DNA from: an uncultured delta proteobacterium
GTDB taxonomy: Bacteria > Myxococcota_A > Polyangia > Polyangiales > Polyangiaceae
Length of the DNA: 64,000 nt
NCBI GenBank assembly: GCA_963716725.1
Contig: CAVQUB010000002.1
Coordinates: 384,001 to 448,000 of the forward strand
Direction of reading: 5' to 3'
This document shows, in pieces, positions 33,001 through 39,000 of the stretch. Position 1 is the first letter of the stretch. Each line of letters begins with the position of its first letter. The position numbers were made by a program.

Positions 33001-36000
33001 GCGTACGGAAGCTCGGGTCGAGGTCTCATACCCGCCCGAGTTCCGCTCGGCCGTCGATCGTGTGGCCGACGCGCTGCCGGCAGATTGGCGCAAAAACGTC
33101 GAGCGGGACCGGGCGCTTTCGCTCTGGGCGCTCTCGAGCATCGACGACGACGACGAACTCGAGGCGATCCCCGCGGAACTCCGCCAGCGCTGCCTCGACG
33201 TGCATCGCGACCTCAGGGACCGCGATCTGGACCGCGACGTGATCGGCGCGCGATACGCCTTCCTCGACGCTCACGCCAACCGCATCTTTGGTCGCGTGGC
33301 GACCCATCCACCCAAGCGTGCGGCGTCGGCGCGCCTCGACCGCGTGCTGCTGCACCCGGTCTTTGGTTTCGCAGCGTTCATCTCCATCATGCTGGTGATG
33401 TTCCTGGCGCTCTTCTCCTGGTCGGAACCTGGCATCGCGCTGATCGAGGGCGCCTTCGGCGGCCTCGCCGAGCTCACCAAGGCTCGGCTCGCCGACGGCG
33501 TGTTCCGCGACTTCTTGACCGACGGTGTGATCGGCGGCGTGGGCAACGTGCTGGTATTCCTCCCGCAGATCCTGCTGCTCTTCCTGTTCATCGGCTTGCT
33601 CGAAGACAGCGGGTACATGGCACGCGTCGCGTACCTGATGGACCGCATCATGCGAGCGCTCGGGCTGCACGGCCGCGCGTTCGTGCCCATGATGTCGGGC
33701 TTTGCTTGCGCCGTTCCGGCGATCTTGGCAACTCGCACCATGGAGCGTCGGCGCGACCGCCTGCTGACCATGATGGTGGTGCCGCTCATGACCTGCTCTG
33801 CGCGCCTGCCGGTCTACACGCTGATCATCGCGGCGCTCTTCCCCGAGCGGACGCTGCTCGGGTTCTTGCCGCTCGGCGCCGTGCTGATGGTCGGCATGTA
33901 CGCATTCAGCATCGCGATGACGCTGCTCGCGGCCGCGGTCATCGGCCGAACCGTGATCCCCGGACGGCGGGTGCCCCTGATTTTGGAGCTGCCGCCCTAC
34001 CGGGTGCCAATGCTGAGGAGCGTGTTCCGCATGATGTGGGAGCGCTCATCGGTGTTCTTGAAGGAGGCGGGCACGGTGATCCTCGCCTGCACCATCGTGC
34101 TCTGGGCCCTGCTGGCCTTCCCGCGCTCCGAGGCGCCGGCCGTGGCGGCCGCGCCACCCGCCGCCGTCGCCGAACCCGTCGAAGAGCTCGCGGCTCGTGC
34201 CCAGGCCCTCGAGCACAGCTACGGCGGCCGCCTCGGCAAGGCCGTCGAACCGGCCCTCGCGCCCCTCGGCTTCGACTGGAAGATCGGCATCGGCTTGATC
34301 GGTGCGTTCGCCGCGCGGGAGGTCTTCGTCTCCACCCTAGGCGTCGTGTACGGCGTGGGCGGCGGTGACGACGACACCGCGCCCCTGAGACAGCGCATCA
34401 AGAGCGAGACCCGCCCGGACGGAAGCGCGGTCTACTCGGCGCTCACGGGGCTCTCTCTCATGGTGTTCTTCGCCTTGGCCTGCCAGTGCATGAGCACCCT
34501 CGCGGTGGTGAAGCGCGAGACGAAGAGCTGGCGCTGGCCGGCCTTTCTCTTTGTCTACATGACCGCGCTCGCCTACGCCGCGAGCCTGCTTGTCTACCAG
34601 GGTGGCCGGCTCTTGGGCTTCGGCTGAGCAATGGCTCAGAAGCGCCCGTGGACCGTGGCGAAGCCGCCGCCGGGACGCGCCGCGAGATCCACTCGGAATC
34701 GCTTGGCCTGCTCCGCTGCCGCTTCCGACTTCTTCCCGGGTGCGAGCAACAGATAAGTGCCAACTCCGAGCGATACGATCCCGACTCCGAGGGCGATGTC
34801 CGCGTAGAGGTACTTCTTCTGGATGGGGTCGAGTTCGCTGTCCGAGCAGGTCTTCGAGTCCGCACACTCGAGCTTGTCTTGATCGCTCTTTCCGCTCAAA
34901 CCGAAATAGGCAAAGCCGCCGAGGCCCACGGCGCCGACGCCCATGAGCACATAGGCCAGCGTCTTGCTGCCCTTGACCTGGTCCGTGCTGACGGTGGTCG
35001 CCCCCGTCTCGGTGCTGCCCGCATCCGTCTGATCCGACTTCGGCACCTCGTACGCGAGCTGGATCTGTTGGGCCTTGGCGCCTTCTTTCACCACGAACTT
35101 GAGCTCTTTGACCCCGTGCTTCGCGCTCTCGAAAACGAAGGTGTGCGTGCCCGGATCGACGGGTAGCGCCTTGCCATCGAGGGTCTCGGCCAAGACCTTG
35201 TCTCCAACCGAAACCTTGACGTCACTCAGTTCTTCGCTGCCAAACTTGGCGCTGAAGACCACGGTCGGGATCGAGCCTTCTACGTCGGAGAGCCACTTCG
35301 AGCAGTCCTTCTTGATGAACGACGGACAGGCCGCCTGCGAACAGGTGACCAAGCTCTCCTTCGCCGCAAGTAGTTTCCCGCCGCTTCGCTGCTCCTGCGA
35401 CGCCTCGTAGGCTTTGGCACAGTCCGCCTTGGCGTCGGCGCCGGCAGGGCGAGCGACGGACACCAGCGCCAGCACCAGCGCCACCAGGATCCCACGCAGA
35501 AAGTAGACCTGCATCACGCCGCAGCTTAGCGCATCTGGGACCCGCCTCGACAAGATCGGGCTCACATGCAGCCGGGTTTCACCCGGCGCACTCCGTTCTT
35601 GTCGATGGTGTACGGAGGATCGCAACTGTCTGCGGCGGGTTTCGGCGTCTTCACCACCGGTTTCTTGGTCCCGGCGGGCGGCTTGTTCTGGGGCTTGGGC
35701 GGAGGCGTCGGCTCGGGCTTCGATGCGACCGTTGCCGCGGGCGCTTCGACGCTCGCGGGCGGAGGCGCGACGACCGGCGTCGGCGTCGGCTCGGGCGTCG
35801 GAACCGCCGGCGTCATGTCCGCGGCGGCGGTGGTGGTCGGATCCGGGGGCAGAACCTCGGCTTCGGGCTTCCTGCGCGCCATCAGCATCACGATGAGCAC
35901 CACGGTCGCGACGGCCATCGCGAAGGCGATGCCGATGAGCGCAGCGACGAGACGGCGTCCGGCCGGCGGCGCGGAGTGCGCCACCGACATGCCGGACGCG

Positions 36001-39000
36001 TGGGTCGGGAGAGTCTCGACCGACGGCCGTGAAATCCCGGTAACGTGAGAGACTTGCGACGGCGACGTGACCGGTTCGCCGGAGGGCCCCACGGGCCAGC
36101 TCATCGCAACCGGCGCCACCGGCTGCGGTAGACCCAGCAATGCCGGGTGGGACGGGCTGGAGACGGGGATCGCATCGACCGCTCGGATGTGCGAGAGCGA
36201 CCCGCTCTCGATCTCTGCGACCTGGCGTGCGCGTTTCCCGATCGTCTCTTCGCCGATGCGCTCGGCCCACTCGCCGACCTCGCGAGACATGGCCATGGGC
36301 CCGGCGTGCTCGAGCGCGATGGCCAACTCGCGCGCGGTGGGCCAACGCGCGTCAGGATCGCGGTCGAGGGTGCGCATCACGATGGCGTCGAGATGAGTCG
36401 GCACGCTGGCTTCGACGCTGGACGGCGTCGGGATCTCGGACTGGAGCAGCTTGGCCATGACCTCGCCGGGATCATCGCCGTCGAAGAGGCGGCGCCCCGT
36501 GAGCGTTTCCCACAGCACGATGCCCGCCGCGAAGACGTCAGTACGCCGATCGACGCCCTTGCCCCGCAGTTGCTCGGGGGCCATGTAGCTGACTTTGCCC
36601 TTCATCTGACCGTCGCGGGTCGAGGTGACGCGAGCGGCCGCCTTGGCGACTCCGAAGTCGAGGACTCGGGCGGAGCCATCGGCGCCGACCAAGATGTTCT
36701 GCGGGCTGATGTCCCGGTGGACGATGTTCAGCGGCGTTCCCTGTTCGCTCTTGGCCTCGTGAGCGGCGTGCAGGCCGTGCAGCGCACCCGCTATGATGGC
36801 GAGGGCGATGCGCGGTGGCACGAGCTCGCCCTGCCGTCGCGCCGCGCGGATCAGCTTCGAGAGCGCCTCGCCATGCACGTACTCCATGACGAGGAAGACC
36901 TCGTCGTCGAGCGGCACCACGTCGAGGGTGCTGACCACGTTCGGATGCTGAATGCGGGCTGCGAGCCGGGCCTCATCCAAGAACATGGAAACGAAATCGG
37001 GATCTTTGGCGAACTGCGGGTGCAGTCGCTTGACGGCCACTGTTCGAGAGAACCCAACAGCACCAACCAATCTGCCAAAGTGCACGGTGGCCATCCCGCC
37101 GGCGGCGATCTCACCGTAGAGCGCGTAGCGCCCGACGATGCGCGGCTCCTGAAGGGGCACGGCACTGACTTGCATGGACAGCGTCCAGGGTATCAGACCG
37201 AGATGGCCTCTGGTAATCAAGGGCCGAAAGTGGCCGCGCGTCGCACCTACACTGGAGCCGAACCCGGCGGCCCCTTTTGCCGACTTCCGCGTGAGTTCTA
37301 CGCGGGTTCGGTGCTCGAAGTGGCGCGGGCCGCGGTGGGCAAGCTGCTCGTGCACGAGGGCCGAGGCAAGACGCTGGTCGGTCGCATCGTCGAGACCGAG
37401 GCCTACCGCGGCCCGGAAGATCTTGCGGCTCACAGCGCGGGGGGCCGCCGCACCGCCCGGAACGAGGCCATGTGGGGGGAGCCCGGGCACGCCTATGTCT
37501 TCCTGGTGTACGGCCTGCACTGGCACGTGAACTTGGTCACCGGGCGCGCCGGCGAACCCCACGCGGTGCTGATCCGCGCCGTGGAGCCCGTCGCGGGGAT
37601 CGAGCTCATGGCCCGCCGACGCAAGATGGCGCCGGATCGTCGCGAACTCACCAACGGCCCCGGGAAGCTCTGCGCCGCCTTTGGGATCGATCGCCGACAC
37701 GATCGGGTCGACCTGACCGAGGGAGGGCGGCTGTATCTCGCGGACGCGCCCAGGGCCCGGGTGACCTCCGCCCGCCGCATCGGCATCGACTACGCGGGCG
37801 CCTGGGCGAAACGGCCGTGGCGTTTCCTGGAACCCGGAAACCGCTACGTGTCTCGCCCGCCCGAAGGTAGGCTGCGCTGCGAATGACGGCGCGTGCTCCC
37901 TCCCAACGGCCGCCCCCTCGGTCCCAACCGCCGGCCCCACTCGAACGTCGCGGCGGCCAGTTGCGCGAACGTCGGATCACCCTCGCGGTTTCCGGAAGCA
38001 TCGCGGCCTTCAAATCCGTTGCCGTCGCCCGGCTGCTGGTCACCGAAGGCGCCCGAGTGCGAACGCTGTTCACTCGCTCGGCGAGCCACTTCGTGGGCGC
38101 GGCCACCTTCGCCGGAATCACCGGCGCGCCGGTGCTCTCGGACATGTTCGACCCCAACGTGCCGGGTGAGCTCCACGTCGACATCGCGAGCAAGACCGAC
38201 TTGATGTTGATCGTGCCCGCCACCGCCGATCTGCTGGCGCGGCTGGCAGCGGGGCGCGCGGACGATCTCGTGGCCGCAACGGCGCTGTGCTGCACCTGTC
38301 CCGTGCTGGTCGCGCCCGCGATGCACCCGGCGATGTGGGCGCACCCGGCAACGCAGCGAAATGTCGAAACACTGGCCACCGACGGGCGCGTCGAACGCGT
38401 AGGACCCGTCTACGGTGAAGTGGCCTCGGGGGAACACGGGATTGGCCGAATGTCCGAACCGGAAGCCATTGTCGAGGCTGCGCTCGTCGCGTTGTCCCCA
38501 CACGACCTGGGCGGCCGCCACATCGTGGTCACCGCGGGGCCCACCATCGAAGACATCGATCCGGTGCGCTTCTTGAGCAACCGATCCAGCGGAAAGATGG
38601 GCTTCGCCGTGGCCGCACGCGCCGCGGCGCGCGGCGCGCGAGTGACGCTGATCGCAGGCCCCACAGGTCTTCCTTCGCCCCATGGGGTCAATCGTGTCGA
38701 CGTGCGCAGCGCCATCGCGATGCGTGGCGCCGTGTGGCAGGCCTTGGGTCCGGACCTCTCCGCCGCCGATGCCTTGGTGATGGCGGCAGCGGTCGGCGAC
38801 TATCGGCCCGCCGAGACTCACGCGACGAAGCTGAAGCGCCAGGCCGAGCGGCTCCAGCTCGAGCTGAGCCAGAACCCCGACATCTTGGCTGAGATCGGCG
38901 CCGCGCGCGCCGGAGCCCGCCCGGTGTTGGTGGGCTTCGCCGTCGAGGCCGACGAAGGCGACAAAGTGGTCGCCTTCGCCCGCGGCAAGCTGGACGCCAA

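Follow-up and report, generated by a model that had tools for sequence, protein, structure and literature searches.

The PASTA kinases PknB and Stk1 share a Pkinase domain, one membrane-spanning helix and a C-terminal part outside the membrane with the kinase that we describe here from a 64,000-nucleotide stretch of DNA of an uncultured member of the Polyangiaceae (contig CAVQUB010000002.1, positions 384,001 to 448,000; hereafter the window). The window kinase differs from them in having no PASTA or other sensor: there is a spacer with a 20-residue loop, and the folded ectodomain is found on a separate protein. A further comparison is with TPR domains that recognize C-terminal peptides, such as Hop, which binds the EEVD end of Hsp70 and Hsp90, and PEX5, which binds PTS1. 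These systems are cytosolic and eukaryotic, with three or more TPR repeats and a carboxylate clamp. The likeness is that a flexible tail ends in a short C-terminal motif, which is combined with a helical-repeat receptor, and classes II and III, described below, fit it best. In class I, to which the window pair belongs, the partner instead has one hairpin and one helix with two presumed disulfides, and the tip would be a folded loop that also occurs in tandem copies away from a free C-terminus.

We know of no accessory-protein histidine kinase that couples through a C-terminal tail tip. Histidine kinases with accessory periplasmic proteins, as the available part of PMC8534201 presents them, delegate sensing to a separate extracytoplasmic protein, as the window pair may do, although the window kinase is of a different class. 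For Actinobacteria, the available parts of PMC6069109, PMC9769921 and PMC8546545 describe a soluble, TPR-bearing PknG, a solute-binding GlnH and a transmembrane GlnX. The resemblance to that system, as portrayed there, is that a Hanks kinase receives its input via exported and membrane proteins that have genes of their own at the same locus, with a TPR element in the coupling. In contrast to PknG, the window kinase is a membrane protein. Its exported partner carries the TPR-like domain, and the two would be coupled outside the membrane, via the kinase C-terminus. We rejected an assignment of the pair to the GlnH-GlnX-PknG type: the kinase has a membrane helix and no TPR, and the partner has no solute-binding match. 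Finally, PEGA proteins (PF08308; available part of PMC2447325) are similar in that the middle domain matches PEGA in 10 of 29 partner paralogues and that some kinases are PEGA-fused, but the window partner itself has no such match. Among the listed literature matches to 'PEGA domain', titles and abstract openings make no link between this domain and kinases.

Results

Anatomy of the pair

The features of the pair, numbered from the first nucleotide of the window, are as follows.

35565..37175, minus strand: Hanks-type Ser/Thr kinase gene, 537 aa, stop codon 35562-35564 (ORF and translation)
36339..37055, minus strand: kinase catalytic domain, residues 41-279 (Pfam PF00069)
35877..35951, minus strand: single membrane helix of the kinase, about residues 409-433, LVAALIGIAFAMAVATVVLIVMLMA (hydropathy scan; boundaries estimated)
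35625..35876, minus strand: Pro/Ala-rich, predicted extracytoplasmic spacer of the kinase, residues 434-517, 84 residues (composition)
35565..35624, minus strand: kinase tail tip, a C-terminal 20-residue Cys-x18-Cys loop, CDPPYTIDKNGVRRVKPGCM (pattern match)
35515..35561, minus strand: kinase-partner gap of 47 nt, partner downstream on the same strand
34639..35514, minus strand: partner gene, 292 aa, stop codon 34636-34638 (ORF and translation)
35437..35514, minus strand: predicted partner signal peptide, residues 1-26, likely cleavage after AGA (alignment; site inferred)
35269..35436, minus strand: partner N-domain, residues 27-82, three helices, with C32, C58, C63 and C71 invariant (alignment)
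35065..35268, minus strand: PEGA-like beta domain of the partner, about residues 83-150 (homology to paralogues)
34747..34971, minus strand: two hydrophobic segments of the partner, about residues 182-204 and 234-256 (hydropathy, alignments)
34639..34746, minus strand: C-terminal tail of the partner, residues 257-292, ending GGGFATVHGRF (sequence)

The Pkinase profile (PF00069) matches residues 41-279 of the kinase with 127.5 bits against a cut-off of 31.7 (E 7.7e-37). Its translation contains VAVKRL, HRDISPQN, DFGVAK and SYMAPE, and we take the VAVK Lys, HRD, DFG and APE to be the catalytic motifs of Hanks-type kinases. Only one membrane segment is seen in the hydropathy scan, C-terminal of the kinase domain, and the tail has a Pro+Ala fraction of 0.40. 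While the spacer shows no conservation among aligned orthologues, the end, CDPPYTIDKNGVRRVKPGCM, fits the pattern C-x2-P-[YFW]-x2-D-x2-G-x4-K-x2-C-[LMY] (contig 419562-419624, stop codon included), and all 25 aligned tails keep its loop residues C, P, D, G and C. From the sequence we infer the membrane topology of the kinase and a disulfide that closes the Cys-x18-Cys loop. The possibility that this is a PASTA kinase was rejected, as the NCBIfam model PknB_PASTA_kin (NF033483) reaches 274.3 bits against a cut-off of 450, covers only the kinase part (residues 12-292), and no PASTA repeats are present.

The window partner reaches threshold for no Pfam or NCBIfam family, and its 129 homologues are all 'hypothetical' wherever a source gives names. 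A hydrophobic N-terminus followed by small residues runs throughout their alignment, and C32, C58, C63 and C71 are invariant in 71 homologues, presumably as two disulfides. PEGA (PF08308) does not match the window partner at E<=1; it matches 4 of the 71 homologues at E<=0.1, and CarboxypepD_reg weakly matches 3 of 71. The beta domain is homologous to the equivalent region of the class II partners (hhalign 99.8%). Pfam TPR profiles also gave no match to the window partner. In a profile alignment the class I helices fall on the first hairpin of class II and on its capping helix, and some 45 residues are absent between them. A helical hairpin plus one helix is short of the three or more repeats of a classical peptide-binding TPR groove, and this speaks against docking.

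Between the two hydrophobic segments of the partner lies a 30-residue loop with two Cys, of which C223 is invariant in the alignments; this loop is probably cytoplasmic. Most of the listed partner-family members end in G-x-F or G-x-W (GRF in the window), and we take the G-x-F end to resemble the C-terminal aromatic signal of outer-membrane beta-barrel proteins. Those proteins have a barrel of eight or more strands with Phe or Trp at the end; the two long hydrophobic segments of the partner argue for a helical hairpin in the inner membrane.

A consensus scan of the region found three terminator-like sites (1.4 expected from shuffles). The only one on the minus strand, 35524-35509 with five pairs, straddles the end of the gap and the partner start codon. 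The neighbours of the pair are FeoAB and CoaBC.

Pairing within the genome

Kinase and partner genes are coupled throughout this genome. Our census, built from six-frame ORFs and jackhmmer, defines a partner family of 48 ORFs at E<1e-35. A kinase ORF immediately precedes 26 of them (its end -50 to 700 nt upstream, same strand) and lies within 5 kb of 41, in good agreement with the genome-wide survey's note, which gave 48 partners, 27 behind a kinase and 40 with one nearby. At a looser E<1e-10 the figure is 33 of 70, compared with 0.69 on average and at most 4 when 70 starts were placed at random (1000 trials). In all 33 paired kinases a single membrane segment is predicted, and the tail is 70-163 aa long with 0.25-0.52 of its residues Pro or Ala, in keeping with the one hydrophobic segment and Pro/Ala-rich tail that the note had described. 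Among the 29 adjacent partners outside class I, 22 have TPR-type matches at E<=0.01 (most of them under the Pfam cut-offs), one more matches ANAPC3, 10 match PEGA and five match nothing.

The note had further stated that the genome holds no fusions. Two kinases with PEGA domains of their own contradict this in the broad sense; a kinase-partner fusion was absent among the longer proteins, which is weak evidence. The fused kinase-PEGA proteins are a Rosetta-stone hint for the kinase-partner link.

Tail tips and partner subfamilies

The strict class I motif occurs 10 times in the genome, seven times at the C-terminus of a kinase. Each of these seven is the nearest kinase to one of seven four-Cys partners: four lie directly upstream, one is 20 nt away on the opposite strand and two are at 3.2-3.6 kb. 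The match reported by the survey is thus correct for the kinases, but it passed over the other three copies, which are on two non-kinase ORFs. When 30 class I partner loci were inspected, 23 had a loop-ended kinase ORF and two more a loop ORF, and at none was there a kinase with another tail.

For class II, the proposed link to two-Cys TPR partners is seen in seven partners of one type, with the tails GGRM, SDQR, NDRK, MGRK, LDRK, DKRL and EGMR. In a replication set of 19 kinases upstream of class II partners, which includes two loci of this genome, 17 end in [SGD][DG][RQ]x. The class III match is loose. All six adjacent P-aromatic tails do go with Cys-free partners as had been claimed, but seven of the 13 Cys-free partners have other tails.

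Tail-tip class follows the partner subfamily and not the ancestry of the kinase domain. With the N-domain columns left out, class I partners form a clade (SH-aLRT 93; 6/7), as do class II partners (SH-aLRT 99; 6/7). A single clade of class II kinases, on the other hand, is rejected (AU p 2.7e-24), and one class II kinase is nested inside the class I kinase clade (support 98).

Spread in relatives

The strict tail pattern is present in 186 of 251 genomes of the family and in 71 of the 89 sampled genera, and the reversed pattern, our control, in none of the 251 genomes. Across those 71 genera the tip is kept at the end of an otherwise unconserved spacer. For 79 tails from 41 genomes, the partner is directly downstream in 52 cases, within 1 kb on the other strand in seven and within 5 kb in five; the other 15 have no partner nearby. 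All 22 of 22 genomes with the tail also have a partner. For 60 tails picked blind from other genera, a class I partner comes next in 43 cases and no partner is nearby in the other 17.

The loop is also found in other settings. There are loop-bearing kinases without a partner within 1.5 kb (loci L141 and L142) and one kinase with the loop behind a PEGA domain (L139). Among non-kinase proteins, one to three tandem copies end exported proteins, and the loop closes a 124-aa membrane-anchored protein and a tiny lipoprotein-like ORF.

Co-evolution of tip and N-domain

Tail and N-domain diverge together. In contrasts over 50 sister pairs that are phylogenetically independent, the divergence of the tail correlates with that of the N-domain at 0.81, the beta domain at 0.70, the TM/C-terminal region at 0.62 and the signal peptide at 0.32. 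In a multiple regression on the same pairs, p is 0.0013 for the N-domain, 0.99 for the beta domain, 0.97 for the TM/C-terminal region and 0.45 for the signal peptide. Column by column, partial correlations run higher within the N-domain (Mann-Whitney p 7e-7), which holds 12 of the top 15 columns.

In the covariation analysis of 109 kinase-partner pairs, the N-domain accounts for 8 of the best 10, 13 of the best 20 and 22 of the best 50 position pairs, and not one of 25 control windows comes up to any of these counts. The best pairs link tail positions 12-15 with partner residues 33, 36, 37, 44, 53, 66, 68 and 70; the strongest positions sit on the three N-domain helices, at moderately variable sites 3-4 residues apart and not in the most variable columns. 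Three of these pairs (13-70, 14-37 and 12-44) return in the top 20 of a new set of 43 pairs, and per-column N-domain coupling correlates between the old and new sets (rho 0.41, p 0.0016). Since the genes in the new genomes are orthologues within the same old paralogue lines, the pairs that recur are not fully independent.

That said, the sequence evidence on binding of the tip to the N-domain is mixed. When the 43 new pairs are taken on their own, the N-domain has a share of 3/10 and 6/20, which is not significant, as 4 and 5 of 24 control windows match it. Within-cluster mutual information gives 3/10 and 4/20, again not significant (3 and 9 of 25 controls match), and charge complementarity was without replication, with r -0.29 at first and 0.01 in the new set. 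The survey's docking proposal is partly supported: the sister pairs and the covariation over 109 pairs favour it, and these three tests give it no backing. Moreover, the tip coding sequence is only about 50-150 nt from that of the N-domain, so the same apparent coupling could result if they shared a history of recombination. The signal peptide, encoded between the two, is not coupled in this way, but it is short and evolves fast.

Discussion

A conserved loop on a kinase that lacks a sensor, which travels and co-evolves with the first domain of a neighbouring protein, suggests a two-protein receptor. We lean slightly towards the view that the tail tip docks on the partner N-domain to form it. 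The two genes would then encode one signalling module. The kinase would span the inner membrane, keeping its catalytic domain on the cytoplasmic side and exposing outside only a flexible spacer of about 85 residues and a disulfide-closed 20-residue loop. The partner would be exported and anchored by a two-helix hairpin, with a disulfide-stapled helical domain, a shortened TPR-like unit, atop a PEGA-like sandwich in the periplasm. The tip would act as a class-specific C-terminal recognition element that plugs into the helical N-domain of its own partner, perhaps near the C32/C71 ends of helices 1 and 3. Other partner subfamilies would combine longer TPR-like N-domains with linear tips, ...[LF]x[DG][RQ]x in class II and ...P[YF]x0-2 in class III. 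Such contact would allow a division of labour, with the partner as the sensing ectodomain and the kinase as the output.

It is also possible, though a good deal less probable, that tip and partner are inherited together without touching: duplicated or recombined as neighbours, the tip would bind another target in the envelope and the partner would act separately, e.g. via its membrane helices. A spacer of this kind has the length needed to cross the periplasm, in the way of TonB-like tethers. The tip and the partner adjoin each other in the DNA, the partner classes are whole-protein subfamilies and not N-domain types alone, and the class I kinases are nearly one clade. The loop kinases L141 and L142, the 17 of 60 and 15 of 79 tails with no partner nearby and the loop behind the PEGA domain of L139 would fit as well. 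Mere co-inheritance accounts poorly, however, for tail divergence that tracks the N-domain only and not the intervening signal peptide, the beta or the membrane regions, for the moderate variability and helical spacing of the covarying sites, and for a tip conserved over 71 genera, always with the same partner subfamily.

Co-evolution cannot separate direct from indirect coupling, and the loop behaves as an autonomous module, given its tandem copies on exported proteins and its presence on the anchored protein and the lipoprotein-like ORF. Tip and N-domain might thus both bind one further molecule and co-evolve through it; candidates could be an envelope polymer or the secreted proteins with one to three free Cys-loops. 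We consider this improbable: no candidate is encoded with the pair, whose neighbours are FeoAB and CoaBC, and a direct pair explains the one-to-one gene pairing more easily.

We see little chance that the partner is a kinase substrate, or a membrane scaffold acting via its helices and the cytoplasm-facing 30-residue loop, with the tip irrelevant to pairing: the two-helix hairpin and loop are the most widely conserved part of the partner family, the helices are Gly-rich and some members lie behind ORFs whose ends presumably resemble sigma-54 activator HTH ends (L109, L120 and L130), but tip conservation and class specificity would be left without explanation, the tail diverges in step with the N-domain and not with the membrane region, and the alignments show no strongly conserved Ser or Thr in the loop.

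If the tail tip does dock on the partner, these results suggest that myxobacteria possess a previously undescribed two-protein receptor.

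The kinase and its exported partner

The kinase gene of the window lies 47 nt ahead of the gene for its partner, an exported membrane protein.

Features of the kinase-partner locus (window positions)
32139-34624, +, FeoA and FeoB (FeoB_N E 1e-47), convergent with the partner gene
34639-35514, -, partner gene, 292 aa, from ORF and translation
35565-37175, -, Hanks kinase gene, 537 aa, from ORF and translation
37883-39169, +, CoaBC-type flavoprotein (DFP E 2e-62), upstream of the kinase

With FeoA/FeoB converging on one side and the CoaBC-type flavoprotein on the other, the kinase-partner pair stands alone. 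The kinase is an ordinary Hanks kinase: residues 41-279 are a Pkinase domain (Pfam, E 7.7e-37), the VAVK, HRD, DFG and APE motifs can be read in the translation, and by NCBIfam it does not belong to the PASTA kinases. It has a single hydrophobic segment (about residues 409-433), then an 84-residue Pro/Ala-rich stretch and finally the 20 residues CDPPYTIDKNGVRRVKPGCM, a two-Cys loop that we call the tip.

The partner has a typical signal peptide at its N-terminus, four Cys within a region of roughly 55 residues (the N-domain, residues 27-82), a beta-rich region, and a 30-residue loop that holds two Cys and is flanked by two hydrophobic segments; its C-terminal tail ends GRF. It matches no family above threshold in Pfam or NCBIfam. 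Its 129 database relatives are called 'hypothetical protein' wherever a source gives a name, and the named ones are Polyangiaceae, Sorangiineae, Byssovorax or Myxococcales records. An ESM Atlas search matched Myxococcota clusters only, and a profile search of the PDB with an alignment of partner homologues gave chance-level matches only (E 0.24).

The window also holds a second kinase of 316 aa (31105-32052, +; Pkinase E 1.5e-35), upstream of feoA/feoB, with only about 45 residues beyond its Pkinase domain, and a 979-aa ORF (39851-42790, -) that contains a run of PVTQPA repeats and no Pfam family.

Pairing across the genome

An iterative search of all six-frame ORFs from the 7.9 Mb genome (35 contigs) gave 204 kinase ORFs and a partner family of 70 ORFs at E<1e-10, or 48 at E<1e-35. 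A kinase ORF on the same strand ends -50 to 700 nt upstream of 33 of the 70 and 26 of the 48, and lies within 5 kb of 41 of the 48; random placement predicts 0.69 pairings, with a maximum of 4 over 1000 trials. The genome-wide survey's note had counted 48 family members, 27 directly behind a kinase and 40 with a kinase near, and our own census (48, 26 and 41) matches it almost exactly. Its description of the paired kinases, as having one hydrophobic segment and a Pro/Ala-rich tail, is likewise confirmed: all 33 have one membrane segment and a tail of 70-163 aa with a Pro+Ala fraction of 0.25-0.52. One membrane segment and an outer tail no longer than 250 residues are found in 114 of the 204 kinase ORFs, at least 33 of the 204 being paired with the partner family. 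The kinase-partner pairing is a real observation: it greatly exceeds chance, and its conservation extends across a bacterial family.

In most of the partner-family members compared, a short stretch of alternating hydrophobic residues leads to a final G-x-F or G-x-W (for example window 34639-34671), an ending that resembles the last strand of outer-membrane proteins or the ligand of a C-terminus-binding domain. Several kinase tails likewise end ...GF, ...PF or ...RF.

Tip classes and partner classes

Class I joins a Cys-loop tip to a four-Cys partner, class II a tip of the [SGD][DG][RQ]x type to a two-Cys TPR partner, and class III a P-aromatic tip to a Cys-free partner. The genome has ten copies of the strict class I motif, C-x2-P-[YFW]-x2-D-x2-G-x4-K-x2-C-[LMY]. 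Seven of them are kinase C-termini, and these seven kinases are, one for each, the kinases closest to the seven four-Cys partners (directly upstream in four cases, convergent at 20 nt in one and at 3.2-3.6 kb in two); the remaining three copies are on non-kinase ORFs.

This matching, reported in the survey, holds in the genome and replicates in relatives. A degenerate DNA pattern, 'loop, one codon, stop', was run against 41 related genomes and matched 79 times in 22 of them, the reversed pattern, our control, not once. The partner is present in all 22; two genomes have it without the strict pattern, one of these with a relaxed loop. A partner lies directly downstream of 52 of the 79 matches, within 1 kb on the other strand of 7 and within 5 kb of 5, and 15 have none nearby. 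Seen from the partner, 23 of the best 30 class I loci have, directly upstream, a kinase-domain ORF that ends in a two-Cys loop, another 2 have a loop ORF whose kinase domain falls in a different frame or beyond the contig, and 5 have neither; a kinase with another tail type was found at none of the 30. Across the bacterial family the pattern is present in 186 of 251 genomes and 71 of 89 genera (control: no match in 251 genomes). When 60 loop matches from other genera were chosen blind to the downstream sequence, a class I partner followed on the same strand in 43 (E 1e-37 to 2e-107), and the 17 without such a partner include one locus that ends at a contig end.

The seven class II partners of this genome have a common N-domain type (...AC..ES.RLDP..GTLLNLA.CHE...), and their kinases end GGRM, SDQR, NDRK, MGRK, LDRK, DKRL and EGMR. 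In a search of relatives with one class II partner as query, a kinase lies directly upstream in 19 of the best 30 loci (2 of the 19 from this genome); 4 of the 11 others had no room upstream. The class II match of tail and partner replicates here, as 17 of the 19 kinases end [SGD][DG][RQ]x, most often with a Leu or Phe placed two to three residues earlier. The third association claimed, of P-aromatic tails with Cys-free partners, is loose: in this genome's adjacent pairs every one of the six P-aromatic tips has a Cys-free partner, but of the 13 Cys-free partners 7 are matched with other tips. In relatives a kinase lies upstream at 12 of 30 class III loci; nine of these kinases have the P[YFW]x0-2 ending, and in another two P-Y is set back from the end by a few residues. 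In four same-genus genomes the class III orthologues have neither a kinase nor a tail ORF upstream. At three extracted loci (L109, L120, L130) the ORF ahead of a class III-like partner is not a kinase, and its C-terminus presumably resembles the HTH end of sigma-54-dependent activators.

A beta domain, two Gly-rich hydrophobic segments and the intervening loop are common to the partner family. Among the 29 adjacent partners outside class I, 22 have TPR-type Pfam matches, mostly below cut-off, 10 match PEGA, 1 matches ANAPC3 and 5 match nothing. A 259-column alignment (probability 99.8%, E 2e-28) joins the class I and class II partner profiles. In it the helices of class I map to the first hairpin and capping helix of class II, with about 45 residues absent between them, and the four-Cys domain is therefore best read, from this profile-profile comparison, as a truncated, Cys-stapled TPR-like unit. 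Its predicted disulfides are C32-C71 and C58-C63.

The loop between the hydrophobic segments (window about 34816-34902) has two Cys (C-x3-6-C) in most subfamilies. It is Cys-free and four residues shorter in class III partners, so the Cys content of N-domain and loop go together. Two class II partners of this genome (C12:56443-57570, + and C20:186008-187135, -) have nearly identical N-domains; one follows a kinase, and around the other there is no kinase for 12 kb, which suggests that the partner was recently duplicated by itself.

Shared descent and a possible exchange of tips

Shared descent explains the class match in part. In a partner tree built from 210 columns, N-domain excluded, six of the seven class II partners form a clade (SH-aLRT 99) and six of the seven class I partners another (support 93), so the classes are whole-protein subfamilies. 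Class I kinase domains fall inside one clade of ten (support 98), which also contains two others and one kinase whose tip and partner are both of class II; the juxtamembrane segment of this 'intruder' resembles class I kinases, which places the switch somewhere in the low-complexity spacer. Class II-tipped kinases are scattered over several well-supported clades, and forcing them into one, a group named after the tree had been seen, lowers the log-likelihood by 256 units (AU p 2.7e-24). It is therefore the partner, and not the catalytic domain, that the tip follows. This fits functional coupling, and it also fits the exchange of one contiguous piece of DNA.

Co-evolution of tip and N-domain

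Class I pairs of tail and partner were collected from 22 genomes (66 pairs) and then from other genera (43 pairs), 109 in total. Mutual information with average-product correction was computed between tail and partner columns, with 25 windows of 20 columns elsewhere in the same partner proteins as controls. In the first set the N-domain, with 21% of the columns, accounts for 8 of the 10 strongest pairs and 11 of the 20 strongest; control windows reach at most 4 and 8. The coupled sites (33, 36, 37, 44, 49, 50, 53, 57, 66, 67 and 70) are of moderate variability and spaced by 3-4 residues, the most variable columns coupling little, and they plausibly cluster in a patch close to where C32 and C71 lie, at the ends of helices 1 and 3.

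Taken by themselves, the 43 new pairs give an N-domain share (3 of 10 and 6 of 20) that is not beyond controls. The pairs 13-70, 14-37 and 12-44 return in their top 20, the N-domain coupling profiles of the two sets, which have old paralogue lines in common, correlate (rho 0.41, p 0.0016), and the sites found first score higher in the new set (0.169 vs 0.107, p 0.009). Pooling all 109 pairs puts 8 of the 10 strongest couplings in the N-domain, 13 of 20 and 22 of 50, none of which any control window reaches; in the eight strongest, tail positions 12-15 are coupled to residues 36, 44, 70, 33, 37, 66, 53 and 68.

Independent contrasts over 50 non-overlapping sister pairs were used to control for shared ancestry. 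Tail divergence correlates with that of the N-domain at 0.81, the beta region at 0.70, the membrane/C-terminal part at 0.62, the linker at 0.36 and the signal peptide at 0.32. A multiple regression over 47 pairs shows an effect of the N-domain alone (p 0.0013; beta 0.99, membrane part 0.97, signal peptide 0.45). Given overall divergence, tail positions 12-15 change with N-domain columns more than with others (p 7e-7), and 12 of the 15 top columns in column-by-column contrasts belong to the N-domain. Within-cluster mutual information, from only 47 sequences in 4 clusters, was not significant against controls. Charge complementarity between tail and N-domain was dropped, since its correlation of -0.29 (p 0.016) in the 66 pairs became 0.01 in the 43 new ones.

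The tip co-evolves with the N-domain more closely than with any other part of the partner, even the signal peptide, whose DNA separates the two. This is what docking predicts. Co-evolution of both parts through a common third component would give the same signal, as would a shared recombination history of tip and N-domain. That the tip docks on the partner N-domain is the reading best supported by these sequence comparisons, and we lean slightly towards it. TPR domains recognise C-terminal motifs in Hop and PEX5, which offers an analogy.

Free loops and PEGA kinases

Tails with no partner nearby are of several kinds. Besides loop-bearing proteins of the sorts listed below, they include kinases that have the loop and no partner within 1.5 kb, and a kinase with a further segment ahead of the loop.

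Loop- and PEGA-bearing proteins (G000, this genome; G006, another)
G000 C8:315007-315573 = L037:2140-2574, +, exported 145-aa protein with two tandem loops, no Pfam family
G000 C34:153660-154030 = L038:2660-3031, +, 124-aa protein with membrane anchor, Pro-rich spacer and loop, no Pfam family
L131:2054-2260, another genome, 69-residue lipoprotein-like ORF, hardly more than the loop
L139:503-2260 (G006), kinase with Pkinase, PEGA (E 1.3e-9) and directly the Cys-loop in one chain
G000 C15:250344-253337 = L068, -, kinase with three PEGA stretches
G000 C9:281070-282479 = L069, +, kinase with one PEGA

Relatives of the C8 protein (L134-L138, L140) are exported, about 145-180 aa long (one longer) and end in one to three tandem loops; this family has no kinase domain and no Pfam family. 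The survey's statement that this genome has no fusions is wrong for PEGA, since L068 and L069 have PEGA domains of their own. No fused kinase-partner protein scored in a search among proteins of 512-2000 aa, which is weak evidence. A TonB_C-like segment before the loop in locus L133, seen by eye, had no Pfam match at E<=0.001 and was rejected.

Being found on exported, lipoprotein-like and PEGA-kinase proteins, the loop is an autonomous exported unit, which suits a ligand-like role. A bolder reading, which we regard as improbable, is that Polyangiaceae use a plug-and-socket code outside the membrane. Each genome would hold dozens of sensor-less Hanks kinases, each with a class-specific C-terminal plug (Cys-loop, ...ΦxGRx or ...NPY/F) that fits a helical socket on the exported protein with which it is paired. 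The plugs that occur free (the secreted one to three tandem loops, the anchored mini-protein, the lipoprotein-like ORF) would then act as diffusible or tethered competitor ligands, and the kinase's own tip would be a tethered pseudo-ligand that is displaced in signalling.

Implications for kinase signalling

The route by which signals reach bacterial Hanks kinases without a sensor domain is an open question, and the identification of their stimuli is called outstanding in the abstract of PMC6069109. The nearest arrangement described in the abstracts of PMC6069109, PMC9769921 and PMC8546545 is GlnH-GlnX-PknG, where the kinase relies on exported and membrane proteins from separate genes; these proteins and their coupling differ from those proposed here. 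The ambruticin-sensing kinases of PMC7643160 are hybrid histidine kinases and hence irrelevant. In the literature on the PEGA domain, the myxobacterial kinome, Mkap/Pkn8/Pkn14 and Hanks-type co-receptors, supplements aside, we found neither the pairing nor, for bacterial kinases, a description of C-terminal motif recognition in the periplasm as receptor assembly.

If coupling does run through the tip, much of the myxobacterial kinome would gain an assignable sensor protein, together with a simple rule for which kinase pairs with which sensor and a compact experimental handle of 20 residues. Periplasmic recognition of C-terminal motifs would then be added to the modes of receptor assembly.
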